64,000 bases of DNA from an uncultured Chloroflexia bacterium (lineage in GTDB: Bacteria > Chloroflexota > Limnocylindria > Limnocylindrales > CSP1-4): the NCBI GenBank assembly GCA_963724095.1, contig CAVRTH010000019.1, forward strand, positions 536,640 through 600,639, read 5' to 3'. Of this stretch, positions 1 to 64,000 are shown piece after piece; position 1 is the first letter of the stretch; every line of letters starts with the position of its first letter. A program made the translations under genes and the position numbers. Below the pieces are notes generated by a model. It did no database searches. It was not told where the DNA came from and saw only the letters and a list, made by a program, of their open reading frames with translations.

Positions 1-48
1 GCTTGGTCAGCCCCTCGGTCTTGATGGGCGGCGCCCCTTCGATCGTGG

Positions 49-525
49 TCATGCGTCCCCTCGTTGCGACTCCTTGTAGTTCTCCCACCGTGCTGCCAGG
101 CGGGGAAGCTCCGCCAGCCAGAAATCGGCGAAGGCGATCATCTCGTCGAGCCCATCGGTGCGCGGCAGCCCGCCGGCGTCCCGCATCTCTCGCCCCATCG
201 CCGCCAACTCGCCAAAGCCCTGCATCTTGGCCCTTGCCATCGAGATCCAGAAGTCGGGGCGCAGGCGGTAGTAGGTCTTGCGGTCGCCGACCCGGTGTCG
301 TTGCTCGATCGCCGCCATCTGCAGCAGCAGGCGTGCGCTGGAGCTGACCGAGGCTGGGCTGAGGCCCGCCCGGGAGCAGATCTCGCCAGCCGACTGTTCG
401 GCCGGCGCGCACGCCAGCAGATAGCCGAACATCTGTCCCGCGGCCCGAGGCACACCGAGCGACGCGAACCACGTGCCCATCTGCTCCACGAGGGCATCGA
501 TGGCAGCGACTCGCCGGTCCATCAC
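49..525 (-). CDS. winged-helix (MarR/GbsR-like) transcriptional regulator
   Basis: 158-aa ORF with a central HTH-like segment (ICSRAGLSPASVSSSARLL) and an AT-rich region upstream of its start at 525-560. Confidence 0.45.
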   Translation of the reverse strand: MMDRRVAAIDALVEQMGTWFASLGVPRAAGQMFGYLLACAPAEQSAGEICSRAGLSPASVSSSARLLLQMAAIEQRHRVGDRKTYYRLRPDFWISMARAKMQGFGELAAMGREMRDAGGLPRTDGLDEMIAFADFWLAELPRLAARWENYKESQRGDA

Positions 526-694
526 TTCAGTAAGTTCCGAACATTTGGGTCATACAGTCATTACGATATCACGCCCAGACGCGGTTGCTGCGCGGTCCGC
601 CCCACCCCGTCTGACCTCGTTGCGAACACGCTCCGCCGCCAGACGTCAGCAGGGTCCCGGAAGCACGTGGCGTTCGTCGGGCGGGGAGGAGAGG

Positions 695-770
695 TGGCGC
701 GCCCGGCGGGACTCGAACCCACGGCCTTCTGCTCCGGAGGCAGACGCTCTATCCACTGAGCTACGGGCGC
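695..770 (-). tRNA. tRNA-Arg (anticodon CCG)
   Basis: Reverse complement reads GCGCCCGTAGCTCAGTGGATAGAGCGTCTGCCTCCGGAGCAGAAGGCCGTGGGTTCGAGTCCCGCCGGGCGCGCCA. Anticodon loop is CTCCGGA, a T-loop GGTTCGAGTCC is present and CCA is encoded. Confidence 0.85.
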
Positions 771-800
771 TTGTGTGTCCATTAGACCACAGCGTTCCGC

Positions 801-3028: not shown

Positions 3029-3732
3029 TCAAGCGACGGCACGGGACGCCTCAGCCAGGTCGATGGAACCGGTGAACAGGGCCTCACCCAGGATGACCCC
3101 AGCTATCCCGGCATCTCGTAGTGTCCGCAGGCCATCGAGGTTGGTGACGCCACCAGCTACCAGCACCTCGGCGTCCAGGTTTGCAGCCAGGTTCCGCAGT
3201 GGCTCGACGCCGTCGCTAGCCACGTGCGAGAACACGAAGCGACCCACACCGGCTGCCTGGAACTCGATCAGCAACTCCTCCAGCGTGGGCCGAGGGCGGC
3301 GCCTCCAGGGGTAGCCGCGCAGGCTCTCCGGCCGCGCGTCCATGCCCACCGCCAGCCAGTCGCCGGCGATCGCTCAGGCATTCCGCCAGTCGTGCGTGAT
3401 CCTCGGCCACGGCCCACAGTGGCAGCACGACACGAGTGGCACCGGCCGCGAACGCGATCTCGACCTGCTCCGGTCCATCGACTCCGCCGGCCAGCTGCAA
3501 CGGCTTGGCCACGGCCCGCGCGATCGAGCTGATGGCCTCGAGATTGGCGGGCCGGCCTCGGGCGGCACCGTCGAGGTCGACGAGGTGGATCGGCCGGCAC
3601 CCCCTGGGCCGCAAGAACCTGGGCGATGGCTGCTGGCCGGTCGGTGGGTGTACCCATTCCCGTCGAGGCACCCGGCCACCACACCAGCCGTGAACGGCCG
3701 TTCTGGAGATCCAGGCTGGGGATGACCTGCAT
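3029..3732 (-). pseudogene. hisA: HisA/PriA-like (ProFAR isomerase family) gene split across three frames
   Basis: N-terminus MQVIPSLDLQNGRSRLV, middle IHLVDLDGAARGRPANLEAISSIARAV (second frame) and C-terminus LVAGGVTNLDGLRTLRDAGIAGVILGEALFTG (third frame); two frame breaks. Confidence 0.55.
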
Positions 3733-5408
3733 CAGCCCGCTGCGGCCGTGCGTGGCATCGTCGGGCCACCACCCTCGCCAGCCAGCAGTCGGCGATGGAA
3801 CGAGATCGGCAGGTTGCCCGAGTAGAGCAGGGCGTCGTGGAAGCCCTTGAGCGAGAAGGCGACGCCCAGTCGTGCCTGCTCATCTGCACGCAACCGCAGC
3901 AACAGCACCTTGCCCAGCAGGTACGAGAGGTTGTAGCCCGGTGTTTGGGTATAGCGATGCACCTCGGCCCTGGCCACGGAACGTTCGAAACCGGTGTGTT
4001 CCACGAGGAAATCGATAGCCTCGGCCACGCTGATCTCGCCGCGATGGAGCCGGATGTCGAGGATGATCCGCGCCGCGCGCCAGATGGCGTCGGTAGCCAC
4101 GATGACCCGTCGCTCGGGCGTGTCCTCGAAGCCCTCCTCCAGCATCATCTGCTCGCAGTACATGCCCCAGCCTTCGTGGAACTCGGGCGCCTCCGTCAGC
4201 AGCCGGGACGGCGTCGGTGACGACAACGCCGCCGCGAACTGGAGATGGTGGCCCGGGTAGGCTTCGTGGACGCTGGTATTGACGATGCTCGCCCAGTTGT
4301 GCTCCAGCATCGCACGTGGGTCGCCATCCACCGAGGGGGTGACGATGTAGACGCCACGGATGGGTCGGTCGAAGGCGGCCGGCTCGAAGTACGCTGCCAA
4401 CGGGATGGTGCTGCGCATGTGTTTGGGCGTCGCTACGATCTCGATGAGGTCGTCGGCCGGCAGGGTGGCCAGATCGTGTTCGGCGATGTATGCGCGAGCC
4501 CGCATCATCGCGTCGCGGTAACCCGCCAGCGCGGCGGCGAACTCGACTGGTCCATCGGCCTTCACGCGCTCTGTGATCTCAGCCTCCGAGAGCCTGGGTC
4601 GATCGCTCGGCCCGCCTCACGCCGAGCCTCGTGCATGGCCTCGAGTTGCTCGTATCCGATGGCCAGGATGTCGTCGGCGCTCAAGCCATCCAGGGCGCGC
4701 AGAGCGATGAGCCGATCGAGCTCGTCAGCACCCAGAGCCACGGCATCGACACTGCGGTCCAGCTGTGTCTCGATCCAGGCGGCATAGTCGAGGAGCGCCG
4801 CCTTGGTGGCACGTGCGGCGCCATGCAACCGCCCCAGCTCCGGGCTGCCCGCCGGCCACACCGCGGTGGCGCTGGTGACGATCTCGTGCACCAGCAGGGG
4901 CAACTCGACTGCCGCCGATCTCCTCCTTCTCCAACCATAGCCGGACCGGCCGGTCTGCCAGCCGGTCGCGCACTTGCTCAAGGGCTGTCGGGATGCCCTC
5001 GATCCGATGCGTCAGCGACAGCAGGCGTTCCTCGAGCGGGGCGAATTCGCGCGCGGCCAGCAGGAACAAGGCGGTGCCGATCTCGTCGGTGGCGGATGTG
5101 CTGCGTTCCCAGCCCCTCACCACCTCCGCGTCGAAGAGGCGTAGTCGAGCGCCGTGCAGAGCTAGTTCGCGTTCGAAGCACACGGCCTCACTCAGTGTGG
5201 CCCGATCGATCGCTTCCAGCTCGGCTACGAAGCGGCGCTCGGCGACGATGTCCGCCTCCTTGGCGCTCCGGCTCAGGTCGGCCAGGCGGCCATCGTGGGC
5301 GTGGATGCCGAGCGCCGTGGCCCAGGCCGGGTACGTCTCCATGAGCGCCTCGAATCGCGACCCGATCGTTTCCTCGACGACCTTGTCAGCCGCCGCCTCG
5401 CCGCTCAC
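3732..5408 (-). pseudogene. DUF885 family protein (putative metallopeptidase with HEAYPGHH motif), two frame breaks
   Basis: Three consecutive minus-strand ORFs (4725-5408, 4562-4981, 3732-4565) together reconstruct a DUF885-like protein of about 560 aa. Its stop overlaps the hisA-like start (ATGA). Confidence 0.6.
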
Positions 5409-8720: not shown

Positions 8721-9581
8721 TCAGGCCAGGCCGGCTTCCCGGGCGCTGGGCCACAGCGAGAGGTCGATGCCCGGAACAAGGTTGGGCAGTTGGGCCAGGT
8801 CCGCTGCATAGCCGGCCAGCAGTGCCGCGTGCAACGACGGTGAGGGCGCGAACTTGTCGCGGGTCGTGGGGTTGACTTCCCCGCGCAATGCCTCGGCGTC
8901 AAGCTCGTGTGGCGGCAGGCCCAGGAACTCGTAGGTGCGTCCCAGCTGATCGGCCGGATCGGTACGGCAGGCTTCGTATTGGCCGACCCACACCTGTTCG
9001 GCCGGGAAGGCCGCCAGCACCCGTCGCAGTTGTGGCGCGTAGAGGCCGCGTTGGAAGGCGCCCTGGATATCACGATCGGTCAGTGGCTTTCGGGAGGTCG
9101 CCAGCTGATGGGTCAGCCCGGAGCGGAGGCGTTCGACGGGATCGCGCAGCAACACCAGGATGCGCGCATCAGGTGCGGCCATGGCGATGAGCTCGGGCGC
9201 CCAGAAGTCGATGAGGTAGCCGGGCGTCCACTCACCCGCGATCGCTCCTGTCGGCACGGGGAAGTAGCGTTGGTACCGCTCGATGTCGGCCTCCCCGAAG
9301 GGCGTTTCCCAGGAGCGATCGAAGAAGTGCAGCTCCTTGGGACGGCCGGGGGAGCTGACCACGCCCGGGTGCGACTCGATGAGTCGGTTCCACCACGAAG
9401 TGCCGGCCTTCTGGGCACCGATGCCGACGTAGTGCGGTGGGCCCACGCCCCAGTCGTCAGGGCAGCGCGGTGGCTGCGGCGGCCCGGGTTGCCGCGGTCC
9501 ACGCCATCGGTACCATGCCCGGGAACCCCGCACGGCCAGCCGACGCGCTCGTGCCCTGAGGGTCACGAGGGTGCCCTCCAC
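8721..9581 (-). CDS. PAPS-dependent sulfotransferase (paralog 1)
   Basis: 5'-PSB-like motif YVGIGAQKAGTSWW, 3'-PB-like LVLLRDPVERLRS, and PKELHFFD. N-terminal 50 aa are Arg/Pro-rich, so the true start is uncertain. Confidence 0.7.
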   Translation of the reverse strand: MEGTLVTLRARARRLAVRGSRAWYRWRGPRQPGPPQPPRCPDDWGVGPPHYVGIGAQKAGTSWWNRLIESHPGVVSSPGRPKELHFFDRSWETPFGEADIERYQRYFPVPTGAIAGEWTPGYLIDFWAPELIAMAAPDARILVLLRDPVERLRSGLTHQLATSRKPLTDRDIQGAFQRGLYAPQLRRVLAAFPAEQVWVGQYEACRTDPADQLGRTYEFLGLPPHELDAEALRGEVNPTTRDKFAPSPSLHAALLAGYAADLAQLPNLVPGIDLSLWPSAREAGLA

Positions 9582-10406
9582 AGCGACAGATCGAGTTCCG
9601 GCAGCAGCGCTGCCAGCCGCTCATTCTCGGGGGCATATCTACGCACCAGCTGATCCTGCTGCCACTCGCTCAGCATCACCTTGGGCCCCCGTGACTCGTT
9701 GATCCGGGCGGCGAGGTCCAGTTCATCAGGGATCTGGGGTGGCAGGCCGATGAAGCCATAGGTTCGCTCCAGCTGTCCCCTCGGATCAGCCACGCACTGC
9801 TCGTATTGCAGCACCAGCACCTGCTCGCGCGGGAACGCCGCCCACAGGCGCAGCAGCTGGTCGGCATAGATGCCACGGTTGAAGGCGGCGTTGGCGGCCG
9901 CCCGCACAGTGGAGCCCACGGCAAAGCGGCTCTCCGCCAATGTCCGTCCCGAGCGGAAGCGCTCGACCGGATCGACGCAGCAGGACCAGCAATCGGGCAT
10001 CGGGCGCGGCCAGGCGCAGCAGCGCCGGCGTCCAGGCGTCGAGCATGTAGCCGGGCGTCCACTCACCGCAGCGCTGGCCCTCCGGACGGGCGAACAAGGC
10101 GTGGTATCGAGCCACGTCGAGCCGGTCGAGGCCGTTGGCCCAGCGATCGTCGAAGAAGTGGGTCTCCTTCGGTGTCGTCGGCATGCGGCTGACGCCAGGG
10201 TGGGACCGGATGAGGCTGTCCCACCAGGTCGTGCCCGAACGTGCGCTGCCGACGCCGACGTAGTCGGGCGGTCCTGGCTGCCAGCCAGTGGGCGTGGCGG
10301 GTGCTGCATCGTGGGGGTTGGGCGGATCGGCCGGCATCGCGTTGATGATAGGCGGCCAGTGTGTCTCGCCCACCTTGGCTGCCAGACAGCGGGCGTGGCG
10401 GGACAC
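9566..10406 (-). CDS. PAPS-dependent sulfotransferase (paralog 2), apparent frame break near 9990-10010
   Basis: N-terminal part (YVGVGSARSGTTWW, PKETHFFDDRW, LLVLLR) sits in ORF 9786-10406. The C-terminal part (DPVERFRSG...LPELDLSLWRAPS) continues in the frame of ORF 9563-10627. Confidence 0.6.
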
Positions 10407-10439
10407 AGAGAAACGACCCGCCCCCTGGTGGGGACGGGT

Positions 10440-10627
10440 CGTCGTTCGGCTCTTGAAGAGCGGTGGCCCCTAGATCTGGGCCGCCGATTTGCGAGAGGAT
10501 CGTCGGAGATCTGGCCGCCCAAGAAGACGAGGGCGACGATGGCGATGATCGCGATGAGCGCCAGGATCAGCGCGTACTCGGCCAGGCCCTGGCCTTCCTC
10601 GTCGCGACGAAGCAGGAAGTCGACCAT
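10440..10627 (-). CDS. flp: Flp-family type IVb prepilin (copy 1); 3' end uncertain because there is no in-frame stop before the sulfotransferase region
   Basis: MVDFLLRRDEEGQGLAEYALILALIAIIAIVALVFLGGQISD with the Flp processing motif G/LAEY. Strong SD (AGGAGG) 7 nt upstream of the ATG at 10627. Confidence 0.6.
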
Positions 10628-10918
10628 GCTGATGGTCCTCCTAATGATTGAGGCTCCCCGCCAAAGCGGTTTGCCGATGATGGATGAATTCGCGCGGCCG
10701 CCCGATCGGGCCTCCGTGCTCGGCGGATATTACAGCCCCGCCGCCAACTGTCCACTGGGACGGCCGACAGGCCAGCTGCACGTCCTCAGTGCCAGAATGA
10801 TGATGGTGGCGCTGAGGGCAGTCCATGGCACCTCTGGTGCGTATGGACCCGGACCTTCGGTGGTGCTCGTGCACCAGTCCCAGATGGGTTCTATGCGGTT
10901 AGTCCTGGTTAGGGTGGT

Positions 10919-19480: not shown

Positions 19481-20114
19481 ATGAGCGCCGCTGACCTTCG
19501 TGGGCGCCGCGAAGCCATCGCCGGCAGTGCTGTCGCCACCGGCAGGGGCGACGACGGCACGACGGGGCTGCTCTACGGCGGCCGGATCACCAAGGACGAC
19601 GCTCGCGCGGAGGCCTACGGCACCATCGACGAGGCCGTCGCCTGCCTGGGCCTGGCGCGCGCAGAAGTGGCGGTGCTGACGGCCTCGGGGACGCTTCCGG
19701 GAACCATCGCGGGCCTGGGGGACACGTTGCTGAAGCTGCAGCGAGACCTCTTCGTCGCCGGGTCCGAGCTGGCCACCAATCCTGATGCCTGGGACCGCCT
19801 GCGAGATGGCGAGACGCGTGTGGACGAGGCCATGCTCAGTGGTCTCGAGCAGATGCTGCATGATGCCGAGTGCGCGCATGGAGATGCCACGCGAGTTCGT
19901 CGTTCCTGGCGCCGACCGCTTGTCAGCCGCGCTCGAGGTGAGCCGTACCGTCATCCGTCGAGCTGAGCGCCGCGTCATCGCGCTCGATCACGAACGTCTC
20001 GTCCCGGGCGCCTGGCTGATGCCATACCTCAATCGCCTGGCCGACCTGCTGTGGGTCCTGGCGCGGCTGGCCGAGCAGGCCGGCGGAGGCACGACCACCG
20101 CGCTGCGCGGCTAG
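19481..20114 (+). CDS. PduO-type ATP:cob(I)alamin adenosyltransferase, apparent frame break near 19860-19880
   Basis: TGRGDDGTTGLLYGGRI in ORF 19424-19966. The C-terminus (FVVPGADRLSAALEVSRTVIRRAERRV...YLNRLADLLWVLAR) is in ORF 19785-20114. Confidence 0.65.
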
Positions 20115-25489: not shown

Positions 25490-26403
<914 letters not shown>

Positions 26404-26451: not shown

Positions 26452-27724
26452 ATGAACACCACGACTCCCCTGGACCCCGAGGTCATCCGACGCGACTTCC
26501 CCATCTTCGAGCGGGAGTTCCATGGCCAGCGCCTGGACTACCTCGATAGTGCTGCCACGGCCCTGAAGCCGCGCGTGGTGTCCGAGGCGGTCGACGGCTA
26601 CAACCGTCGCTATAGCGCCAACGTCCATCGCGGCATCTACACCATCGGCGAGGAGGCCACGGCGGCCTACGAGGGTGCACGCGAGAAGGTGGCCCGCTTC
26701 ATCAACGCACCCGACCCGCGCGAGATCGTCTTCGTCCGTAACGCCACTGAGGCCATCAACCTGGTGGCCTACGCCTGGGGCAGGCGCAACATCGGTCGTG
26801 CCGACGCCATCGTGCTGACTGAGCTGGAGCACCACTCCAACCTGGTGCCCTGGCAGCTGCTGGCACAGGAGAAGGACGCCGATCTCGAATTCGTGCCCTT
26901 CGATGCCCAGGGCCGGCTCGATCATGGATTCCTGGGAGGTACTGCTGCGGACCCGTCCCAAGCTGGTCGCCTTCACCCACAAGTCCAACACCCTCGGCAC
27001 CGTCCTCCCGGTCGCGCAGATGGTGGCGCAGGCACACGATGTCGGCGCCCTGGTGCTCGTCGATGGCGCGCAGGCCGTGCCCCACATGGCCGTCGACGTG
27101 CAGGACATGGGTGCCGACTTCTACGTCTTCTCCGGCCACAAGGTGCTGGGTCCCGCTGGCTCCGGCGCACTGTGGGCACGAGCCGACCTGCTCGAGGAGA
27201 TGCCGCCGTTCCTCAGCGGTGGCGAGATGGTCAACTCGGTCCACCTGCGACACACGACCTTCAACGACATCCCCCACAAGTTCGAAGCCGGTACGCCCGA
27301 TGTGTCCGCCGCCATCGGGCTCGGCGCCGCGGTCGACTACCTCACCGACCTCGGCATGGACCGGGTGGCGGCCCACGAGGAGATGCTCACCGCGTACGCG
27401 CTCGAGCTACTGCCCCGGGAGGTGCCGGGGATCCAGATCCACGGCCCTGCGGAGGCCGCCGATCGGGCCGGCATCGTCACCTTCACCCTGCCACAGGCGC
27501 ACGCCCACGACGTCGCTACGCTCCTCGACCGTGAGGCCATCGCCATCCGCGCCGGCCACCACTGTACGCAGCCGTTGCACGAGCGACTGGGTGAGACTGC
27601 CACCTGTCGCGCGTCCTTCGGCGTCTATAGCGGCAGCGACGATATCGACCGCCTGGCCACCGCACTGCGCGGTGTCCAACGCATCTTCGGGCGAGCTCCG
27701 GCCCCTGCCGGCAGCCCGTCGTAG
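26452..27724 (+). CDS. sufS: cysteine desulfurase SufS (group II), apparent frame break near 26900-26940
   Basis: YLDSAATALKP, VHRG N-terminal half in ORF 26452-27534. C-terminal half (FSGHKVLGPAGSGAL, RAGHHC) in ORF 26903-27724. Confidence 0.8.
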
Positions 27725-27760: not shown

Positions 27761-28160
27761 ATGGATGACCTCTACCGCGACGAGATCCTCGAGCACTACC
27801 GCGAGCCCCACAACTTCGGCACACTGGACGCGCCTGACGCCGTCCACGAAGGCCACAACCCGCTCTGCGGCGACCGCATCACGATGATGCTGACCGTCGA
27901 CGCGGCCGGGAACATCAGCGACGTCGCCTTCACCGGCCGGGGCTGCGCCATCAGCCAAGCCTCCGCGTCCTTGCTTACCGACGAGGTCAAGGGTCGTCCG
28001 GTGACCGAGGTCGAGGCGATGCGAAACCAGGACGTCCTCGACCTCCTGGGTATCGAGATCGAGCCCGGCGCGCCTGAAGTGCGCGCTCCTCTCCCTCGAT
28101 ACGATGCAGCGTGCGCTGGAGGGGCGCCACCGCGACACGACCACCGACGCCGGCCACTGA
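27761..28160 (+). CDS. sufU: SufU/NifU-like Fe-S scaffold, apparent frame break near 28060-28075
   Basis: MDDLYRDEILEHYREPHNFG, NPLCGD, GRGCAISQASAS. The expected C-terminus RLKCALLSLDTMQRALEGRH is in the +1 frame, ending with TGA at 28158-28160. Confidence 0.7.
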
Positions 28161-31948: not shown

Positions 31949-32777
31949 CTACTCCCCGCCGGGCGTTCCCGGCGGCAGTTCGAAGAGCGCGACATCGCAC
32001 TGGTAAGCCCGTAGCAGCGTGAAGATGTAGCCCATGCGCTCGTGGTAGGACTCCCAGTCGGGCGCATCGCTATGCACCACCGAGTCGTGATCCTGTCCGA
32101 AGCGATCTGCCAGTTCGATGAGCTCCGGGTCGTGCAAGGTCTGCAAGTCGGTCGGGAAGTCGCGCCCATCGAGGTAGGTTGGCCGAGGCACGTCCTCGTC
32201 AAGCTGCACGACCCCGTCGGGGAGGTGCAGGCCAAGGTGGCTGGTCGCCACCACCGCCAGGATCGAGCCGCCCGGGATGGCAGCCTTGATGAACGGATCG
32301 GCCACCATCTGTTCGTGCGCGCCCACCGAGACGTCGGCCACGAGCATGCGCTGGGCGCGGCACGCTTGCGCTGACCGGTCGGGGCGAGCGGGTGCGGCCA
32401 GCAAGAGGGCATCGGCATAGCTGCGAAACGCCTGGCGCAGGTCCATGCTCGCTGCGATCTGCGGGTCCTGGTACAGGCGCCACGTCACCGAACACCGCCG
32501 CGTTGCCGGCTGCGACGGCGGCACGGACGTCATCGATGAGCAGTCGTCTCAGCGGTCTGGAGATGGAGGCACCGAGCATCGAGCGTCGTGCCTCGGAACT
32601 GGCCCACTGGCCGAAGGTCAGCCAGTTGACGTGCTCGCGACCGAGGATCGCCGCCATCGCCTCGGAAAGCGCGTGATAGCCGCGTGTGATGGCGGCGTTG
32701 CGGGCCAGCTCGTCCTCCATCGCGAGGATGGTGCCGATGTCCTCGAGGCGCAGCCCGGTCGCTGGTCGGTCGTTCAT
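31949..32777 (-). CDS. hypothetical protein, apparent frame break near 32450-32530
   Basis: N-terminus MNDRPATGLRLEDIGTILAMEDELARNAAITRGYHALSEAM (frame of ORF 32199-33092) continues in ORF 31949-32533 (…AIPGGSILAVVATSHLGLHLPDG…); no family assigned. Confidence 0.35.
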
Positions 32778-44040: not shown

Positions 44041-44076
44041 GCCTCGCGCGACAGACGCAGGGTCGGGGCCCGGGAC

Positions 44077-44500: not shown

Positions 44501-45128
44501 ATGACCCGGATCGACGACCCCGGCGCCCGCCTCCCCGTCCACGGTTTCGCCAACGGTGCACCCCAGTGGCTGGCGCCGGTACTGCGCTATTGTTCCCGCT
44601 GCGGTGGGGAGCTGGTGTTCGGCCCGGTGGCGGGCGAGGAACGCGAGCGGCACTGCTGTTCCGCCTGCGGCGCCATCACCTACGTCAACCCTCGCCTGGT
44701 GGTGACCACGCTGCCCATCACCGATGCGGGCGAGCTCGTGCTCATCCGTCGCGCCATCCCTCCGGGCATCGGCACCTGGGCCCAGCCGGGCGGCTTCCTC
44801 GAAGCCGATGAGACGGTCGTGCAGGGTGCGGTGCGCGAGACACTCGAGGAGACCTGCCTGCTGGTCGAGCCCACCGACATCGTGGGTATCTACTCGCGGC
44901 CACAGGCAGCGGTGGCGGTCATCGCCTATCGTGCCGATATCCTGGGCGGAGACGATGCAACCCACCCCCGAGTCCCTGCAGGTGCGGGCCTTCGCCGTCG
45001 AGGACATCCCCTGGGAGGGCCTCGGGTTCGACACCACGCTGTGGGCGGTGCGCGACTGGGTCCGATCGGTTCGACCCGACCTTGACGTGGATGTGCTCGG
45101 GCCGGAGTTCCTCGAGCGCCGGGATTGA
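44501..45128 (+). CDS. NUDIX hydrolase with N-terminal zinc ribbon (NudC-like), apparent frame break near 44950
   Basis: CSRCGGEL...CSACG zinc ribbon and Nudix box GFLEADETVVQGAVRETLEET. The C-terminus continues in ORF 44724-45128. Confidence 0.6.
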
Positions 45129-45210: not shown

Positions 45211-45504
45211 TCACATCGTGGCGATGTTGGAGAGCGCACCCAGTCCGCCGACCAGCACGCCGAATACCAGGACGGCGGCGGCCAACCTGGGACGAGTACG
45301 ACCGACGACGAGGAAGACGGTTGCCACCAGCAGTACGGTGGCGAACTTGGCCACGGTCAGCAGCGCCAGTCCGTAGTCGGAGGCGAGGGTGGCGACCAGC
45401 GGGTTCATCTCTGCACCCAGCCCGTGCCGTGCCACCATCACCAGGAACGTGGTGTAGTCCGCCAGGTGGGCGATGATCAGGAGCCCGATACCCAGGGCCG
45501 ACAT
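45211..45504 (-). CDS. small membrane protein, unknown function
   Basis: 97 aa, 3 TM. Confidence 0.35.
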   Translation of the reverse strand: MSALGIGLLIIAHLADYTTFLVMVARHGLGAEMNPLVATLASDYGLALLTVAKFATVLLVATVFLVVGRTRPRLAAAVLVFGVLVGGLGALSNIATM

Positions 45505-45644
45505 GTCTCCTCCGTGCCACCAGGGCGCTGCCTTCTGGACGCGGGACCGGGCTCGCCACTGCTCGACGTGATCCGGTTCGGCGACCGGGATGGATCACGC
45601 GTCTTCGCTTCCCGTACTGGACTTGGCTCGGAAGGCTCCCGATT

Positions 45645-46833
45645 CTACCGCTCGGCGCGTCTCGGATCGGTGACCGTTTGGCTCGGACGCCGCACGGGCC
45701 AGCGTCGATCGACCTGCTCGGTGACAGAACGCACCGGATCTGCCGGCCAGCGGACGCACTCCCCGCCCAGGCCGAGCCAGTCGTCGAGATGCCAGCACAG
45801 CACGGGCGCGACTGCCGCGAAGTAGGCGAAGGTGCCCCACCAGCCGAGGAAGAGCGTGGCGCCGAACACCAGGGTCCCGACGATGACGAGCGAGGCAGCC
45901 GACCGAACCCACACCAGGCTCGCGATGGCGAGGAGGATGCCCGCGCCGATCCGTAGCATCCCCCAGGCGCCTGCTGGGATGCCACCCGGACTACCCACCG
46001 CGTACGCCAGCGAGTAGTAGGGCTGAGCGTGGATCGTGTCGGCACGCCGGAACGACCACGACAGCGCCTCAGGGCTCCATGCCACCAGCGCTGGCAGCCA
46101 CATCACGGCAGAGGCGATGAGGAAGGCGATGAGCGGACCGACCGCACCGGCATAGGCCACCAGACCTGGCAACCAGGCGAGTGCGTAGGGCTTGAACGCC
46201 GCAGCGACTGCGAGCAGCACCCCGCCCGCGATGGGCGCGCGCATCGCGACCAGCAGTGCGACAAGGATGAGCAGGCCAGCCGTGGTGTCGTTGGAGCCAT
46301 CGGTCGCAGAGACCACGAGGGCGGGCGTGACTGCATAGACCGCGAGGCCCAGCGGGCGCCCGCGGACGGCCAACAAGCCCAGCACCAGCATGGACGCCGC
46401 CAGCTCCAGCTGTACCGGCTGGTCAAGGCTGGGCAGGTACCACAGCAATGCCACCGGACCGTAGGCGAACGGGGCCCCGGCGGGCAACGACTCGGCGTAG
46501 CCATGGCCGTACGGGATTGCCCCCGGCGATCATCTCGCGGATGGCGGCTTCGGTGACGACGAGGACATCGCTGAACCCGCTCGACGGTGCGACTCGCAGG
46601 GCGATGCCGACCAGCAACAGCAGGATGACGGCCACTCCTGCCACGCGCCAGCGCAGCGAGACCGCCAGGATCACCGCCACCGCGATGAGTGACAGCACTG
46701 CCACGGGCGGCGGCGTCCCCGATCCGAGCAAGCCCACCAGCGCCACGATGAGTGCCAGCCAGACCGCCGACGCGGTGCGCTTGTGGGGAGCACGCTCGCC
46801 GATGCCGGACGTACCGGCGGAGTCTCTGCTCAC
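45645..46833 (-). CDS. GT87/DUF2029-family membrane glycosyltransferase (polyprenyl-phosphomannose-dependent type), apparent frame break near 46490
   Basis: Polytopic protein of about 390 aa reconstructed from ORF 46423-46833 and ORF 45645-46487; FKPYALAWLP-type loop. Confidence 0.5.
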
Positions 46834-52351: not shown

Positions 52352-53089
52352 TCAGCGAGACGACTCGGCGAGCGCCTTGATCACCTTGAGCATCTTGCGC
52401 TCCATCACGAACGACACGGGCTCCAGCAACAAGGGACCTCCCATCAGCCTGGAGCGGCGGTCGTCAGCGTGCTGGTAGCGGGTTCGGGACACGAGCCTTG
52501 TCGTCCCTCCCGGCTGTTCGATGAGCACGAGGGCCCAGCTGGTGGCGAGGACCGCGCTCTCATCCGCGTCAGCGGGGCCACCGAAGACTACGAGCGTCGT
52601 GGGCTCTTCGACGACGGTCACGGTCAACGGCGGTGCCTGCGCGTGCAGCCTGACCGGGTCCCCCACGCGGACGTCCTGATGCTCGTCGAGGATGCGCGCG
52701 GTGTTCTCGATCTGGCAGCCTACGAGGTTCTCCAGCTTCTGGTAGCTGTAGAAGCCACCTCGGCCCTGGCCGATCTGAGCTATCCACGGCCAGATGCGCG
52801 GCGCTGGTGCGTTGATGGAGATGGCGTGCGTCGCGCTCCACTTCGGATGGGGAACGAGCTCATCGCCCGGATAGGACCTCGCGAGCTCTGCGTCCGTCGC
52901 TCCCCATCGCAGGCGTCGGGACCTGAGGAAGGGTGTGATCAGGGCGCCCCCGGTCTCGACGCCCCCCTGGAGGGCTTCAGTCCACGAAGCCCCGATCTTC
53001 GTCACCACGGCCCCCTCCACGCACCCTCGTCTACGGATCTTGCGACAGACCCAAGCCTTGATCGACGGGCTCTCGTGGCCAAGGGCCAA
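52352..53089 (-). CDS. SRPBCC (Bet v1-like / polyketide cyclase-like) family protein; start uncertain
   Basis: ISINAPAPRIWPWIAQIGQGRGGFYSY resembles SRPBCC ligand-binding proteins. Confidence 0.45.
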   Translation of the reverse strand: MALGHESPSIKAWVCRKIRRRGCVEGAVVTKIGASWTEALQGGVETGGALITPFLRSRRLRWGATDAELARSYPGDELVPHPKWSATHAISINAPAPRIWPWIAQIGQGRGGFYSYQKLENLVGCQIENTARILDEHQDVRVGDPVRLHAQAPPLTVTVVEEPTTLVVFGGPADADESAVLATSWALVLIEQPGGTTRLVSRTRYQHADDRRSRLMGGPLLLEPVSFVMERKMLKVIKALAESSR

Positions 53090-53163
53090 GAGGACCTCAA
53101 GCGGGGAGAAGCCGGCACGTTCGTGTCGGAAGGAGCACTCGGCTCGCGCGTCGCTGGATCTTG

Positions 53164-54236
53164 CTAGGGCACGTCCACCGGACGCACCACGCGGTCCTCG
53201 CGTCCGGAGATCTGCGCGGCGAGCGCGGTCGACAGCACCTGGCGGTGCTCGTCCGCGGTGAGCAGCGACGAGCGTCCCTCGCGCACAGCCTCGATGAAGT
53301 CGCGCGTGGCGAGGATGAAGGACTCATCCCACTCGCTCGCGATGTCCTCGTAGTCGCGCGTGACACCGTCACGGTACACCTGCAGCGAGGGCACCTCCTG
53401 GATCTTGCCGTGGCCGCGGTTGACCCACGCCACGCCACGTGAGCCGGTGACCTCGACGCGGTCATCCTGGGAGTAGAACAGCGTCTGTACCTGCAGCTCG
53501 GGCGCGTTGACGACCTCCAGGACGCCCATGGCCCCACTCGCCCAGCGCAGCGAGACCGCGGACGGCGAGTCCAGCGCGCCACCCTCCACCGGGGTCGAGC
53601 CGATCCAGTGCGTGGACCTCGTCAGCCACTCCCAGCAGCGCCCAGAAGATGCTGAACTTGTGCAGCCCGTCATCGAATACCAGCGGCCCACCGCCGTTCT
53701 GCTCGATGTCGAAGCGCCACGCGGCCGCACGGTCGGGGACATCCCAGCCACAGGCCGGGTTGCCCGAGCGGCTGATCTGGCGCACTGACAGCACCTCCCC
53801 GAGCTCGCCCTGTCGCACCAGCTCCACGAGCTGCGCGACCGGCGGGTAGAAGAGGAAGTTCTCGAAGACGCGCACTACCTGGCCCCGCGCCTCTGCCTCG
53901 GCGGCTGCCGCGACGAAGCGCGAGCACTCGGCCACCGTGAAGCCCACCGGCTTCTGGGTCGAGAGGTGCTTGCCCGTCTCGATGGCCGCCAGCGCCACCT
54001 CCATGTGCATGTGGTGGGGCAGGAGCACCTCGAAGGCGTCGATCGAATCGTCGGCCAGGCAGTCGCGCCAGTCGGCGTACACCTTCTCCGGCTCGATGCC
54101 CCACGAGCGTGCCCGCGCCAGGGCGCCCTCCGTGTCGGGCTTGCAGACCGCGGCGATGCTGGGTGTACGGCGACTTGACGTACTCGATGGCGTGCAGGTC
54201 GCTGATGCGGCCGGGGCCGATGATGGCCACCCTCAT
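53164..54236 (-). pseudogene. Gfo/Idh/MocA-family oxidoreductase split over three frames
   Basis: N-terminus MRVAIIGPGRISDLHAIEY (ORF 53670-54257), middle EVLLPHHMHMEVALAAIETGKHLSTQKP (ORF 53462-54082) and C-terminus in ORF 53164-53751. Confidence 0.55.
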
Positions 54237-54284
54237 GCGTTCGACGGCTGCGGACACGTGTGTGCTCCCTCCCTTGGCTCGACA

Positions 54285-55167
54285 TCATTCCTTGACGGCG
54301 CCCAGCGTCAGCCCGGCGATGAAGTACCGCTGGAACACCACGAAGACCACGATCGTGGGGACGCTCGCGATGACCGACATGGCCGCCTGAGAGGCCCAGG
54401 CGACGTTGTACTGGCCCTTGAGCGCATTGATACCCGCCATCACCGTCTTGGCTTCCGCCGAGCGTGTGAACACCAGCGGCCACAGGAAGTCATTCCAGAT
54501 CCAGGTGAACTGTAGGGTCGCGAGGACCGCTAGTGCCGGCAGCGACAACGGCACCACGATCCGCGGAGCAGCACCGACCACTCGCCGGCCCCATCCACGA
54601 TGGCTGCCTCACGCAGGCCGGATGGCAAGGCGCTCAGGAAGTTGCGCATGAGCAGGGTCGTGATCGACATGCCCAGGTCAAGCGGATATGGACGGATAGA
54701 CCGTGTCGTAGAGCGTCGGATACAGCGTAGTCGAACAGTCCCAGGCTATCGAAGATGCGGAACAGCGGGATCAGCATCGCCTGCGGCGGGAAGAACATGC
54801 CCGCGATGACGACCAGGAAGAGCACCTCGGCAAAGGGGAAGCGGAACTGGCTGAAGACATAGCCCAGCAGGACCCCGCCGGCGACCGAGATGATGGTGGC
54901 CGGGATGGTCACCAGGAAGCTGTTGAGCAGGTATCGCGGCAGCGGCGTGTCGGTGATCAGACTTCGCGTGAAGTTGTCCAGCGTCGCAGCTTCGGGGATA
55001 TGCCATACCCCCCGCAGCGAGATCTCAGCGTTCGTCTGCAGTGACGTGAGGACGACACCGATCAGTGGCGCCGCGTAGATCACGAGCATGGCCAGGATGA
55101 AGCCGTGCAGCAGCAACGATCGGCTGGGCGGGCGCGCCTTCTCCGCCTGCACGCGGGCGTCAGCCAT
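54285..55167 (-). pseudogene. CUT1-family sugar ABC permease (MalG-like), frame-disrupted
   Basis: N-terminal part in ORF 54634-55167; C-terminal part (EAKTVMAGINALKGQY…) in ORF 54285-54581. Confidence 0.55.
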
Positions 55168-56036
55168 AGAGGCGCTCCGAAGCCCGGCTCTGGCGGAAGT
55201 AGATGACGATCACGATGATGGCCAGGCCGAAGAGGGCGGTGGCGATGGCGGCACCGTAGCCGAACTGGTACTTGAAGAAGGTCTCGGAGAACATGAACAT
55301 CGCCAGGTTGTCCGAGGTGTGGAATGGGCCACCCTTGGTCAGGACATAGACGATGTCGAAGCCCTTGAGCGTATTGATGACGGCGAGACTGATGACCACC
55401 ACGGTCGCCGGGCGGAGTAGTGGCACCATGATGCGGCGGAACTGCTGCCAGGTATTGGCGCCGTCGATCGAGGCGGCCTCAAGCAGCTCTCTGGGGATGG
55501 TGGTAAGCGCGGCGAGATAGAGGATCAGGCTGAGGGCCGTCTGCTGCCAGCACCAGGCTACGATGACCGCCGCCAGGGATGTGTTGGGGTTTCCTAGCCA
55601 CGCCTGCGTGAGGTCACCCAGCCCGATGGCCTCCAGGACCGAGTTCAGCAGTCCCCAGTCGGGTTGGTAGAGTCCAGACCCAGACCTGCCCCACGACCAC
55701 GAGGGAAAGCGTGATGGGCAGGTAGAACATCGACTTGTAGAAGCGGCTCGCACGCAATGGCCGGTCGAGCAGCACTGCCAGCCCCAGGCCGGCGATGGTG
55801 GGTACCGTGACGGCGACGATGAGCCAAAGCGCGGTGTTGCGGAAGGCGCCGATGAAGAGCGGGTCGTTGAGAGCCCTGACGTAGTTGTCCAGACCGATGG
55901 GCGTGGGATCGCCGAGACCGCTCCAACTCCATGTGCTGTAGATGGCCGACTGGAGCAGCGGGTAGAGCACGAAGACGAAGTAGATGGCAAGCGGACCCGC
56001 AGCCATCGATATCAGCGCCAGGCGGCTTCCACGCAT
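55160..56036 (-). pseudogene. CUT1-family sugar ABC permease (MalF-like), frame-disrupted
   Basis: N-terminus in ORF 55614-56036; EAA-loop C-terminal half (ASIDGANTWQQFRRIMVPLLRP) in ORF 55160-55990. Confidence 0.55.
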
Positions 56037-56133: not shown

Positions 56134-57439
56134 TCACTGCTGTTCGAAGGCGGCCTTGACGCCTGCCTCAGTCTCGGCCAGCAAGGCCGCGACGTCCTGG
56201 TTCGGGTCGGACATGAACTTCGCGAACATGTCCAGGCCGACCTCCGACGGCGCCGGCGGCGTCGCGAGGTCGTAGTTGAAGTTGAACGACGGCGACGCCG
56301 CTACGACGGCGAGTGCCTTCTGGAGCACGCTGTTCAACGCGCTCGTATCGGAATTCACGTTCGGGGGCAGTGCGCCCTGGCCGATGGCCCACTGGGTCTG
56401 CACATCCGGTCCCGCCAGGAACGCGAGCAGGTCCATGGCGTTCTGGGGATGCTTGGCCGCAGCCGCGACCGCGAAGGTGTCGACCGGCCCGACCACCGCA
56501 TTCGGCATGCTCGGGTCGAGCGTCGGGAACTCGAAGAAGTCGTAGTCCTCACCTGCGACCGCACCCAGGCCATCCATGTAGCCGGTGATCCAGGTGCCCA
56601 TGAGGTTCATGGCCGCCTCACCCTTGTAGAGGCTGGTCGGCGGCGTCGGTCCAGTCGATAGGCGTTGGCGTCCGGCGTGAAGCAGCCGGCATTGGCGGCA
56701 TCCTGCCAGAGCGTCATGGCATTGACGACCTCCGGGTCGGTATAGGAGGCATCGCCCGCCATCAGGCTTGGCGCGGTAATCGGGCCCGGCCGTCCGCAAC
56801 AGGAGATAGTCGAACCAGAACTGGGCCGGCCAGCGGTTCATGGAGCCGATCGAGATGGGGACGATGCCCTGTTCCTGCAGCGCGCCGCAGGCCGCGAGGA
56901 GCTCATCCCAGGTCGTCGGGATCGGCTACCCCGGCGGCGTCCATGACCTTGGGGTTGTAGAACATGCCGGCGTAGTGATAGCCGAACGGGATGAGTGTAC
57001 TTGCTCCGTCATAGGTCGACGCCGCCGCGACCATGCCCGCGCGGGAACTGGATGCATCCAGGTCATTCGCCGCCCACATCTCGTCGATGGGCATGAGCGA
57101 GTCCGTTCTTCACCTGGAAGGCGGCCCGGGCACCAGCCCAGTCGGTCAGTACGTCCGGCGGGTTGCCGCCCGCCAGCTGCACCAGGATGGCGGTCTTGTA
57201 GTTCTCGTGGTCGATCGTCACACGAAGTTGACGGTGATGCCGGTCTCGTCGGTGAACTGCGCTAGCATGATGTCGAGCCAACGCCTTCTCGCCAAGGTCG
57301 ACCTGAGAAGTACGTCAGGATGTCGACACTGTCACCTTCATCCTGGGCGAGGGTCGCTGTTGGTGCCGCGACCGCCAACAGCGCGACACTGGCCGCCAGC
57401 ACGAAGCTTCGGCGCCAGATCGTTCCCAACTTGGTCATC
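56134..57439 (-). pseudogene. sugar ABC substrate-binding protein split over at least 4 frames
   Basis: Signal peptide MMTKLGTIWRRSFVLAASVALLAVAAPTATLAQDE after AGGAGG. Body pieces lie in ORFs 57063-57281, 56903-57094 and 56134-56841. Confidence 0.5.
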
Positions 57440-60858: not shown

Positions 60859-62000
60859 GCCATTCCCCCTCCGTGAAAGCGATCGATGCGAAACATCCCG
60901 ATGTCATGGTACGTCCCGCCATCGAGCGCGAGGTCAGCGGCGATCTCCCCCACCACGCTGGCGAACTTGAAGCCGTGGCCGCTGCAGGGTGACACGACCA
61001 CGACCTGTGGTGCCGACGGCAGCCGGTCGATGATGAAGTGCTCGTCGGGGGTATTGGTGAACATGCAGGTCTTGCGCGTGAGTGCCGCACCGTCAGCGTC
61101 GGGCAGGTAGCGAACCGTGGCGGCCCGGATGACGGCCTCGTCCTCGGGCTCGAACCGCGAGCGGTCCCAGGCGTCGGGGTCGACGACCTCTCGCCGATGG
61201 TGCATGAGCCCGATCTTCAGCCCCGGGATGCCGTACTCGGGGAAGCCGTAGTAGAGCCCCTCGGGCACCTCGAGGATGAAGATGGGGAAGGCGCCCACCG
61301 CGTAGCGCTCGGGACGCAGGGTCCGTGCCCACAGCAGCATCTGTCGCTCCGGCAGCGCGATCGTTGCCAGCGAGTCGATCAGTTTTCCCACCCAGGCTCC
61401 GGTACTGACTACGAGCCGGCGTGCCCGGTACTCGCCCTGCTGCGTCTTCAAGACGACGCCGTTGCCATCCGGCCACCAGTCCACGACCGGCTCGTAGCCG
61501 CGCAGGTCGGCGCCGGCGTCCAGGGCCAGCCGCGCGTACCCGGCGATGGCGCGCTCGCTCAGCACGAATCCACCCTCGGGCTGATAGACAGCGACCAGGT
61601 CGGACGGCAGGCGGAAGCCCGGGAACCGAGCCATCAGGGCCTCCGCGTCAAGCAGCTCATGTTCCAGGTCGTGGGTGCGGGCCGATGCCAGTGATCCCCT
61701 CACGGTCTCGCTCGCAGGATGTCCGATGTCGACCCCACCGGTCGTCACCAGGATGGGCTCGCCCAGCCGCCTCTCCAGCTCACGCCATCGCACGTAGGCG
61801 CGACGAAGGAGAGGCACGTAGCGCGGATCCTCGGCGTAGGCCAGGCGGATGATGCGGTTGACGCCATGAGATGAACCGCTGTCGTTGGGGATCCCGGCTC
61901 GCTCCAGCCCAAGCACGCGAGCGCCGCGAGCCGCCAGCTCTGCGGCCGTGGCACTGCCCATGCCGCCCACCCCGGCCACGATGACGTCGTACTCCATCAC
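60855..62000 (-). CDS. monomeric sarcosine oxidase / N-methyltryptophan oxidase family flavoenzyme
   Basis: DVIVAGVGGMGSATA FAD motif and the MSOX covalent-flavinylation region SPCSGHGFKF. Confidence 0.8.
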   Translation of the reverse strand: MMEYDVIVAGVGGMGSATAAELAARGARVLGLERAGIPNDSGSSHGVNRIIRLAYAEDPRYVPLLRRAYVRWRELERRLGEPILVTTGGVDIGHPASETVRGSLASARTHDLEHELLDAEALMARFPGFRLPSDLVAVYQPEGGFVLSERAIAGYARLALDAGADLRGYEPVVDWWPDGNGVVLKTQQGEYRARRLVVSTGAWVGKLIDSLATIALPERQMLLWARTLRPERYAVGAFPIFILEVPEGLYYGFPEYGIPGLKIGLMHHRREVVDPDAWDRSRFEPEDEAVIRAATVRYLPDADGAALTRKTCMFTNTPDEHFIIDRLPSAPQVVVVSPCSGHGFKFASVVGEIAADLALDGGTYHDIGMFRIDRFHGGGMA

Positions 62001-62086
62001 GTCTCCCCGCGCTCAACGACGAAGACCGGGCGAGGATGCCCGGTCTTCGTCGCATGCTGATGGCGGGACCGAACGGCCCCCTTGCG

Positions 62087-62548
62087 TCAGACCGAGGTAG
62101 TCGGGGGCGGGGTGGACGTGCTCGGGTCGCCGGTCGCCTGCGGGTTGCCGGCGAATCTGTCCATCTCGACTTGCGCGAACTGGTCGCGGATATCCTGCCG
62201 GCTGGTGTACCACAGCAGCAGCGCAGGGATGGCCGCGGACGCCAGGCCGTAGGCGATCGAACCGGTGGCCATCCAGACGAACATGGCGTCGACGAGTCCG
62301 AACACCGCCATGATCATGGTGAAGAGCAGGGCCCATGGTCGCATGGACCACAGGGCCCAGCCGACGCCCAGATAGATGATGCCCACGACGAGGGTCACGA
62401 GCCCGACCCAGACCACTCCGCTGCCGTTCCACTTGTCGTCGCCGAAGATGGCGATGCCAAGGAGTTGAAGCGCGACGAGCAACCGCACCGTGGCGATGGC
62501 GATGGCGAGTGCCCCAAGCATCAGCACTCCGAATGGGCGACCTTGCAT
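62087..62548 (-). CDS. hypothetical membrane protein
   Basis: 4 TM helices and a Pro/Thr-rich C-terminus. Confidence 0.4.
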   Translation of the reverse strand: MQGRPFGVLMLGALAIAIATVRLLVALQLLGIAIFGDDKWNGSGVVWVGLVTLVVGIIYLGVGWALWSMRPWALLFTMIMAVFGLVDAMFVWMATGSIAYGLASAAIPALLLWYTSRQDIRDQFAQVEMDRFAGNPQATGDPSTSTPPPTTSV

Positions 62549-62717
62549 CTGTCGATACCTCCGTGTTGGACGACCGAGGACCCGTGCGGCTCTCGAGGGC
62601 ACGACTCTTGGCGCACGCTGTCTGCTAGCGTATCGCAGCTCACGTCAGCCGAGCCATCAATTCTCGCGTACGCATGCGGCAAGCACCACCTGGCACCCGC
62701 CGCATGCGGCATTGGGA

Positions 62718-64000
62718 TCAGTCCTCGATGGTGACGTAGACCGGTGCCGTGATACCTCCCTGCACGGGGGCCCGGTCGAGGGACACCATGTCGCCTGCGG
62801 TGGCACGTCGCGTTCGCGGGATGGCGAACGCCGCCATGGCGCCGACGCCCACGAAGACCGCCCCCATCAGGACCGCTGGCACCATGCCGTCGACGAATGC
62901 CTGCGGGCTGGCGTAGGAGCCACGCTGCGAGAACACGGCCGCCAGCACCGCAACCCCGAAGACGCCACCCAGCTCCCGGATGGCGTTGCTGGCGCCGGAC
63001 GCCTGGCCCTCTTCCTGCTTGTGAACAGCGGAGAGGATGACATTGGCCATGGGTGCGAAGAACAGGCCCATGCCGATGCCGGAGATGACGAACGCCGGCA
63101 CCATGGCGAGATACTCGACCGACGTGCTCGAGACCAGGCCCAGCCAGGCCAGTCCGATCGCCTGCAGTGTCAGGCCTGCGCCCATGAGCAGCCCGCCGCC
63201 GATGCGGTCAGATAGTGCGCCCGCGATCGGCGCCACGAACATCGGCGCCAGCGTCCAGGGCAGGATGGCGAGCCCAGCCTCCAGCGGGGAGTAGAGACGC
63301 GCGAACTGCAGGAACTGCACGAGCAGGAAGATGGCACCGAACATCCCGAAGCTCATGAGCATGGCGCTGAGGTTGGCCAGGCTGAAGGCGCGGCTGGCAA
63401 AGAAGCGTGGCGGCAGCATCGGCGCTGGCGCGCGCCGCTCCCACAGCAGAAAGGCGATCAGCAGGGCGATGCCGGCTGCGAGCGCTCCCAGGATAAGCGG
63501 GCTGGTCCAGCCCTCGCTGTTGCCGTTGATCAAGGCCCATACGATCCCGAAGAGGCCCCCCGACGCCAGGACGACGCCGCGCAAGTCCAGGCGACCGGCC
63601 GGGCCATGGCTCTCACGCAGTCCGAACCAGGCCAGCGGGATGAGTGCCAGCCCGAGGGGCACGTTGACCCAGAAGATCCAATTCCAGGCCACTCCCTCGA
63701 CGATGGCGCCGCCGACCAGTGGGCCGATGGCGATGGCAAGGCCTCCGACCGCGCCCCAGGCGCCGAGGGCCATGCCACGTCGCTCGGCTGGCACCGCGGC
63801 GCTCAGCAGTGTCAGGGTCAGGGGCGTCACGATGGCCGCTCCGATACCCTGGGCCATGCGGCCGATGAGCAGCATCTCCACGCTCGTCGACGAGGCGGCG
63901 AAGGCCGATGCCGCGGTGAAGATGGCCACACCGATGATGAACATGCGGCGCCGACCGAAGCGGTCACCCAGTGCCGCGCCGGTCAGCAGGAAGACAGCGA
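62718..64000 (-). CDS. MFS transporter (DHA2/EmrB-like), N-terminus beyond the window end
   Basis: More than 408 aa of 12-14 TM MFS-like sequence ending at 62718; the ORF is still open at position 64000. Confidence 0.75.
   Translation of the reverse strand, partial: AVFLLTGAALGDRFGRRRMFIIGVAIFTAASAFAASSTSVEMLLIGRMAQGIGAAIVTPLTLTLLSAAVPAERRGMALGAWGAVGGLAIAIGPLVGGAIVEGVAWNWIFWVNVPLGLALIPLAWFGLRESHGPAGRLDLRGVVLASGGLFGIVWALINGNSEGWTSPLILGALAAGIALLIAFLLWERRAPAPMLPPRFFASRAFSLANLSAMLMSFGMFGAIFLLVQFLQFARLYSPLEAGLAILPWTLAPMFVAPIAGALSDRIGGGLLMGAGLTLQAIGLAWLGLVSSTSVEYLAMVPAFVISGIGMGLFFAPMANVILSAVHKQEEGQASGASNAIRELGGVFGVAVLAAVFSQRGSYASPQAFVDGMVPAVLMGAVFVGVGAMAAFAIPRTRRATAGDMVSLDRAPVQGGITAPVYVTIED

Follow-up and report, generated by a model that had tools for sequence, protein, structure and literature searches.

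A 64,000-nucleotide stretch (hereafter, the window) of a 1,138,220-bp contig from the metagenome-assembled genome (MAG) of an uncultured Limnocylindria (Chloroflexota) bacterium contains many otherwise conserved genes that are interrupted by changes of reading frame, raising the question of whether these genes are decaying or were broken while the consensus sequence was being built. The frame breaks are very probably consensus errors of a Nanopore-only MAG whose real genes are intact, rather than marks of gene decay. This reading is preferred because Logan contigs lack the inserted bases, the frequency of breaks depends on how a genome was assembled, and the repaired genes are free of stops and have normal dN/dS values. 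The contig most likely belongs to the Microflora Danica (MFD) long-read catalogue, whose pipeline is Flye assembly and a single Medaka round. The MAGs of this catalogue (MFD-LR) were built from Nanopore data alone and polished once, with Medaka 1.8.0 (PMC12313526).

Frame breaks in the window

Frameshift-aware protein-to-DNA alignment, with intact orthologues from 3-10 relatives as references, located 28 frame-breaking events in 15 of the ~73 genes of the window (~21%). Off-frame ORF matches overwhelmed naive blastx as a means of calling breaks in DNA of such high GC content; its place was taken by a filter on GC at codon positions together with a dynamic-programming aligner that allows for frameshifts. 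Insertions make up 27 of the 28 events (24 of one base and three of two bases), and the remaining event is a deletion. The binomial p value for this bias (2e-7) refers to 26/27 events, since it predates a re-alignment to L089 that divided one event into two. The preliminary description had counted at least 18 affected genes, a figure that is lowered here to 15; 14 of the 15 genes it named are confirmed, but its DUF385 remnant was not found among 20 leftover ORFs. Weak N-terminal candidates in CapA (6755) and in threonine aldolase (6500) were ascribed to start-site divergence and are not counted.

In the first part of the window, four broken genes lie on the reverse strand. The hisA-like gene (3032..3732) runs through three frames, with one-base insertions at ~3374 and ~3591 (contexts GATCGC[T]CAGG and GGAT[C]GGCC) according to frameshift-aware alignment to L086 and L082; the two parts of its Pfam His_biosynth match (profile positions 41-108 and 123-227) are in separate frames. 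The DUF885 gene (3753..5408) has a one-base insertion at ~4916 (GCC[G]ATCTCC) and a one-base deletion at ~4594, the sole deletion-class event of the window, both derived from alignment to L082 and to the intact 558-aa protein of L086; Pfam profile positions 1-126 and 286-527 fall on separate ORFs. The sulfotransferase 2 gene (9566..10337) was aligned to the L086 Sulf257 protein, placing a one-base insertion at ~9974-9975, where the window reads GGATCG[A]CGCAGC and two relatives read GGGTCG-CGCAGC. The flp pilin copy 1 (10483..10627) carries one-base insertions at ~10488 and ~10505 (GGG[C]CGCC and GGAT[C]GTCGG), within its last 15 codons. It no longer has its stop codon, and the frame stays open as far as 9563, forming a 388-aa ORF that contains a Flp_Fap match; the L082 protein Flp51 matches it at 95% over residues 1-41 and diverges afterwards.

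Three further genes are on the forward strand. A PduO-type cobalamin adenosyltransferase gene (19481..20111) has a one-base insertion at 19871 (GAG[T]GCG vs GAG-GC in five relatives), dividing its Pfam Cob_adeno_trans match by frame into profile positions 1-103 and 104-170. The preliminary description had singled out sufS and sufU as affected, and both are. The sufS cysteine desulfurase gene (26452..27724) carries a one-base insertion at 26919 (GGCT[C]GATCATGG vs GGCT-GATCATGG in seven relatives), its Pfam Aminotran_5 match is divided into profile positions 2-128 and 130-371, and the break is supported by 70-77 loci. In sufU (27761..28160), with a one-base insertion at 28061 (GAGATC[G]AGCCC vs GAGATC-AGCCC in eight relatives), the NifU_N match covers only profile positions 2-96 of 127 and is then lost; removal of the inserted base restores ISPARLKCALLSL.

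A lineage-specific hypothetical gene (31949..32753, reverse strand) has a +1-class frame break at ~32440-32525. It has no homologue in the syntenic relatives, and homologues such as P0413 and P0424 extend across both halves without interruption; in the alignments of four of five homologues the break is a one-base insertion at 32441-32525. The NUDIX hydrolase gene (44501..45125, forward strand) is interrupted by one inserted base, G44951, and matches only profile positions 3-81 of 134 (Pfam). A polytopic membrane protein gene (45645..46830, reverse strand), which the preliminary description had labelled GT87 and which has no Pfam match, carries a one-base insertion at 46512; proteins of L081 (373 aa) and L084 (383 aa) align across its two frames. 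A DUF5658 membrane protein gene (45214..45560, reverse strand), absent from the preliminary description, is also broken, with a one-base insertion at 45479 near its 5' end that makes the called gene 97 aa instead of 115 aa.

The remaining events fall in a sugar-uptake operon on the reverse strand. The Gfo/Idh/MocA oxidoreductase gene (GFO; 53167..54257) has one-base insertions at 53608 and 54158 (CCA[G]TGC and GAT[G]CTG), and its GFO_IDH_MocA profile match is distributed over three frames. Each of these frames agrees with L081 at 97-99% of amino acids, with exactly one spare base per junction, and L084 and L089 gave the same result. ABC permease 1 (54288..55167), aligned in frameshift-aware mode to L081, L084 and L089, has insertions at ~54565 (two bases), 54677-54683 and 54723-54729. 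ABC permease 2 (55163..56036) has a one-base insertion at 55672 (TAGA[G]TCCAG vs TAGA-TCCAG, with three relatives concordant), and the Pfam BPD_transp_1 match is divided in both permeases. The sugar ABC substrate-binding protein (SBP; 56137..57438) has eight insertion events, at 56632, 56657, 56766-56769, 56923, 57098-57101, 57223 (two bases), 57275 and 57303, as located with L081 and the closer L089 (83% of amino acids); its SBP_bac_8 match starts only at profile position 109.

Break rate across the clade and comparison with Logan contigs

Frame breaks were surveyed at 84 related loci, comparing MFD Flye/Medaka Nanopore MAGs with other MAGs of the same clade; the loci closest to the window all belong to Limnocylindria MAGs, on which ground the actinobacterial origin hinted at by the gene content was rejected. 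MFD Flye-contig loci contain 56 breaks in 511 kb (1.1 per 10 kb), whereas the other loci, mostly short-read MEGAHIT or SPAdes assemblies, contain one break in 302 kb (0.03 per 10 kb; p ~1e-10 for break rate against assembly method). By the same strict criterion the window has two breaks in 18.7 kb, or 1.07 per 10 kb, bearing out the high density that the preliminary description reported. The break rate tracks assembly method, not lineage. Breaks in the relatives are private and affect different genes, namely DUF885 and CapA in L082, Tag and GDSL lipase in L084, and a TPP enzyme in L089, and 40 of 47 located events in MFD relatives are one-base insertions, the same bias as in the window. CapA, sulfotransferase 1, Tag and GDSL lipase are intact in the window and broken in relatives; candidate breaks in CapA and sulfotransferase 1 (called via L082) and in Tag (via L084) were rejected as errors of L082 and L084 themselves.

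Three Logan contigs from run ERR11523667 match the window at 100% (L083), 99.65% (L087) and 99.24% (L088) identity. The inserted bases at 44951, 45479 and 46512 are absent from L087 and L088, that is, from all three break sites covered. The repaired 208-aa NUDIX protein, with G44951 removed, has an exact match only in Logan (contig L087), and the broken 194-aa form occurs in NCBI/ENA alone, on the 1.14-Mb contig. In L088, DUF5658 has its 115-aa form and the polytopic membrane protein gene is intact, encoding 395 aa. An intergenic consensus error is also visible at 44062..44064, where the window reads GGGTC-GG and Logan reads GGATCAGG in the L087 alignment. To judge by the run's ERR prefix and its ENA project, the Logan contigs probably derive from the same Nanopore reads as the window and so represent an independent consensus rather than an independent chemistry; as k-mer contigs, they are a proxy for read-level support. 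Between L088 and the window there are 15 substitutions in 2.2 kb, so that L088 could partly represent a co-occurring strain. Logan confirmation extends to 3/28 events, the 53.6-57.3 kb cluster lying outside the contigs retrieved. Exact repaired forms of SufU, HisA, Flp1, PduO, GFO, permease 2, sulfotransferase 2 and SufS had no Logan match, but these negatives are uninformative because only 2/7 intact control genes were found in Logan.

Residual indels of Nanopore-only Flye and Medaka MAGs, known from IDEEL-type truncated gene calls, likewise take the form of one-base splits at a rate tied to platform and pipeline, and they too are private to each MAG and removed by an independent consensus.

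Gene decay as an alternative

Genuine pseudogenisation, in which a host-restricted or otherwise decaying lineage loses genes by real frameshifts, would fit the share of genes affected, the clustering of events (variance/mean 2.8, with half of them in the sugar-uptake operon) and the dN/dS of the SBP, at 0.41 the highest observed. It is nevertheless highly improbable. The broken genes are free of nonsense mutations, of large deletions and of IS insertions, and no in-frame stop occurs across the 26 genes examined. The near-exclusive occurrence of insertions is the reverse of the general picture of bacterial mutation, which is reported to favour deletions. The affected genes include sufS and sufU, neither of which has a second copy within the window. 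All repaired genes are readable end to end and evolve under normal purifying selection, with dN/dS of 0.05-0.23 vs 0.06-0.38 for intact genes. The platform-dependent break rate and the three testable sites that are intact in Logan likewise speak against decay, and the earlier preference for indel artefacts over pseudogenes is upheld. Genomes of the Mycobacterium leprae type carry mixed lesions (stops, deletions and rearrangements) under relaxed selection, and their lesions are reproducible across sequencing methods. The window resembles such pseudogene-rich reduced genomes in its high fraction of frame-disrupted genes; unlike them, it has neither mixed lesions nor relaxed selection, and its breaks are not reproduced at any of the three covered sites.

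A mixed origin, with most breaks being artefacts and the sugar-uptake operon (permease 1, permease 2, the SBP and perhaps GFO) really undergoing inactivation, is very unlikely. It draws on the concentration of 14/28 events within 3.7 kb (53.6-57.3 kb; Poisson p ~1e-8, computed for at least 13 events), on the elevated SBP dN/dS, and on the failure to retrieve a Logan contig with an intact operon, a homologue search having returned no near-identical Logan protein for the repaired SBP segment. Against this, the 14 operon events are without exception insertions and match the proven artefacts in kind, the SBP once repaired reads as 429 aa without a stop and can be aligned over its whole length, GFO shares 98% identity with its relative in L081, and the Logan negatives carry no information, as the control genes indicate.

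Sequence context of the errors and relevance for databases

The preliminary description had expected G/C homopolymers at the indels, an expectation that fails: a run of at least four bases lies within 3 nt of 0/27 events, compared to a background of 6.7%. Runs of at least three bases are no commoner near events than in the background, and the three Logan-verified insertions each lie between unlike bases. Homopolymer-length errors of an older Nanopore or other long-read chemistry, although a classic source of frameshifts in Nanopore assemblies (PMC9262707), are accordingly extremely improbable here; in contrast to those classic indels, the window has insertions at non-repetitive sites in a genome of 67% GC. 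Programmed frameshifting is also improbable, given that no slippery motif is common to the 28 sites, which lie in 15 unrelated genes, and that Logan lacks the extra bases at the sites it covers.

The motif GATC occurs within 6 nt of 10/24 events vs 10% background (p 5e-5), and within 3 nt of 8/21 differences between the window and Logan vs 4.5% background (p 2e-6); the substitutions between Logan and the window are mainly A-to-G and T-to-C. This enrichment suggests methylation-linked consensus errors. Methylation errors described for ONT R10 (PMC12506013; PMC11610603) are likewise concentrated at or beside a short palindromic motif, with A-to-G and T-to-C substitutions dominant and indels within 1-2 bases of the motif. 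The window differs from those cases in that only ~40% of its events are near GATC, and any methylation here is suggested by sequence context; another motif or plain low coverage, which the preliminary description had also named, must account for the other events. Nothing resembling a Dam methylase was noticed among the genes of the window.

The errors would originate while the consensus was being built or polished. Some would stem from modified bases, probably 6mA in GATC, that distort the signal expected by the polishing model, and local clustering would reflect low coverage or mixed strains; for R10.4 data, ~40x coverage is required for a near-finished consensus (PMC9262707). It is possible, albeit tentative, that the error positions mark a Dam-like GATC methylome (possibly with a second motif) in this Limnocylindria lineage, and that they reveal a polishing model which fails systematically by inserting bases. 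Many public MFD long-read MAGs, GTDB species representatives among them, would in that case carry ~1 false frameshift in every 9 kb of conserved coding sequence.

The window contains no new biology, and its relevance is one of database quality. About a fifth of its genes (~21%) are split or truncated, sufS and sufU included, and errors of this kind distort the pseudogene counts, metabolic reconstructions, pangenomes and protein databases that are built from such records. Since the errors are not of the homopolymer type, homopolymer-aware filters would miss them. Sister MAGs of the same catalogue are affected in the same way, with about one such error in every 9 kb of conserved coding sequence.

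Extent and form of the frame breaks

Frameshift-aware protein-to-DNA alignment located 28 frame-disrupting events in 15 genes, about 21% of the approximately 73 genes in the window, and each affected gene is intact in at least one relative. By profile coordinates, single Pfam domains are cut into consecutive pieces carried by two or three neighboring ORFs that differ in frame, as seen for His_biosynth, DUF885, Cob_adeno_trans, Aminotran_5 (2-128 and 130-371), NifU_N, NUDIX, GFO_IDH_MocA, two BPD_transp_1 permeases, and SBP_bac_8. Events are located in the hisA-like gene (3374, 3591), the DUF885 gene (4916, 4594), sulfotransferase 2 (9975), flp copy 1 (~10488, ~10505), PduO (19871), sufS (26919), sufU (28061), a hypothetical gene (~32440-32525), NUDIX (44951), a DUF5658 gene not noticed before the Logan comparison (45479), the membrane protein initially labeled GT87 (46512), the Gfo/Idh/MocA oxidoreductase GFO (53608, 54158), permease 1 (54565, ~54680, ~54726), permease 2 (55672), and the sugar ABC substrate-binding protein SBP (eight events, 56632-57303). 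The frame breaks reported in the preliminary description are confirmed; 14 of its 15 named genes proved broken, and no DUF385 remnant was detected. No Pfam family covers the hypothetical gene; its database homologues run through both halves uninterrupted. The otherwise collinear relatives lack this gene (31850-32800) and have different, longer DNA there, and homologues occur elsewhere in public data.

In DNA alignments with up to nine relatives, the window carries one extra base per break, e.g., GAG[T]GCG, GCT[C]GATC, GATC[G]AGC, CCA[G]TGC, and GAT[G]CTG (inserted base in brackets). Insertions account for 27 of the 28 events and a deletion for one; the bias is significant in a binomial test (p = 2e-7) on 26 of 27, a count predating the re-alignment with relative L089 that divided one event into two. 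The homopolymer association initially expected fails: no run of at least four bases occurs within 3 nt of any of 27 events, versus a background of 6.7%. With the extra bases removed, the genes read end to end, with no in-frame stops in 26 genes. The dN/dS values are 0.05-0.23 for repaired genes (0.41 for SBP) and 0.06-0.38 for intact neighbors, and GFO retains 97-99% amino acid identity to relative L081 in all three frames.

Assembly origin and independent consensus sequences

Window GC content is 66-70%. A SufC search found no actinobacterial relatives; the best SufC loci all belong to Limnocylindria (Chloroflexota) MAGs (90-70% amino acid identity), many being 'MFD...contig_N' Microflora Danica long-read records. 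The closest loci share 78-81% nucleotide identity with the window and are collinear over 15.4-34.5 kb; L081, L084, and L089 served as syntenic relatives for 42-58 kb, and L082 and L086 for 1-16 kb. In NCBI and ENA, the window's own proteins sit on one 1,138,220-bp contig (P0121, P0246). We infer that the window belongs to the Microflora Danica long-read MAG catalogue, which is Nanopore-only, with Flye assembly and one round of Medaka 1.8.0 polishing (PMC12313526).

Breaks in all fetched loci were called alike, requiring support from at least three other genomes. MFD Flye contigs had 56 breaks in 43 loci (511 kb; 1.1 per 10 kb), versus one break in 41 loci (302 kb; 0.03 per 10 kb) from other MAGs, mostly MEGAHIT or SPAdes assemblies (p ~1e-10); the lone break is on an OPERA hybrid contig. 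By the same criterion, the window had two breaks in 18.7 kb (1.07 per 10 kb). Among locatable MFD events, 40 of 47 are 1-base insertions, and the MFD breaks are MAG-private and in differing genes, with sufS struck at several different positions. The break rate therefore tracks the assembler, which speaks against a biological cause.

The MFD relatives have split genes of their own: DUF885 in L082 (11113-12790); GDSL lipase, Tag, and TPP enzyme in L084 (19353-19995, 7933-8448, and 15023-16849); and TPP enzyme in L089 (4145-5958). Each of them has an unbroken counterpart in the window or in the short-read MAG L086. In two cases, a pair of different MFD MAGs shares a 1-base insertion at one site (L028:11849/L037:11803 and L026:13226/L035:13275), one being gcacgccc[G]gacatc in sufS and the other directly before gggccagg in the next gene, an observation that suggests systematic, context-specific errors or common ancestry of the MAGs concerned.

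Direct comparison was provided by Logan, which assembles public sequencing runs one by one from k-mers and forms part of the protein collection used. The window's RpiB was found on Logan contig L083 (run ERR11523667), which matches window 49006-50303 at 100% identity. In exact-sequence look-ups, the frameshifted NUDIX protein (194 aa) matched in NCBI/ENA only, whereas the repaired form (208 aa, G44951 removed) matched in Logan only. The repaired-NUDIX contig L087 (99.65% identity to the window) and contig L088 (99.24%) lack the extra bases at 44951, 45479, and 46512, and L088 encodes the membrane protein as an intact gene of 395 aa. Therefore, wherever an independent consensus spans a break (3 of 28 events), the break vanishes. 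Other repaired proteins had no exact Logan match, a result without weight because only two of seven intact control genes were represented full-length there. The Logan contigs probably derive from the same Nanopore reads as the window. The 15 substitutions between L088 and the window may reflect a co-occurring strain; 10 of them are concentrated in 300 bp (45376-45676), a patch attributable to poor polishing or to microdiversity among strains in the sample.

Error type, GATC association, and clustering

Collectively, the evidence supports the artefact reading of the preliminary description while correcting the error type to insertions outside homopolymers, with a partial link to GATC; the window's frame breaks hold no new biology. 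GATC lies within 6 nt of 10 of 24 window events versus a 10% background (p = 5e-5), and within 3 nt of 8 of 21 Logan-window differences versus 4.5% (p = 2e-6). Two Logan GATC sites read GGTC in the window, and, going from Logan to the window, A-to-G or T-to-C changes make up 9 of 17 substitutions. This pattern agrees with published methylation-linked ONT errors, which include indels at most one base from methylated sites (PMC12506013), suggesting that methylation-linked consensus error at GATC may explain part of the events. Since ~60% of events lie away from GATC, a further contribution from low coverage, mixed strains, or a second motif would be required. Events also cluster along the window (variance/mean 2.8, p = 2e-7): the sugar operon at 53.6-57.3 kb holds 14, which appear to match the proven artefacts in kind, and its repaired genes are intact. 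GATC occurs 409 times in the window (1-64000) versus 191 expected from base composition.

Neighboring features

Three flp pilin paralogues (10483-10627, 10922-11110, and 11991-12254) adjoin two tandem sulfotransferase genes (region 8721-12254); relatives have one or two sulfotransferase genes. The suf cluster (24956-31291) comprises Rrf2-SufC-SufS-SufU, the window lacking both sufB and sufD, and is directly followed by rhodanese-ThiF, ThiS, a PALP enzyme, and a JAB protease, resembling a CysO/CysM/Mec-like sulfur-carrier set. Between nucleoside hydrolase and isocitrate dehydrogenase, L081 and L084 encode a PETase/chlorophyllase-like hydrolase; the window contains no match to this gene (corresponding site 42462-42583). 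Finally, dS relative to L081 is only 0.16-0.23 for RpiB, hyp185, hyp217, and GFO (49600-54300), versus 0.4-0.9 for most other window genes relative to L081 or L086, suggesting that this segment was recently exchanged or recombined between two Limnocylindria lineages.
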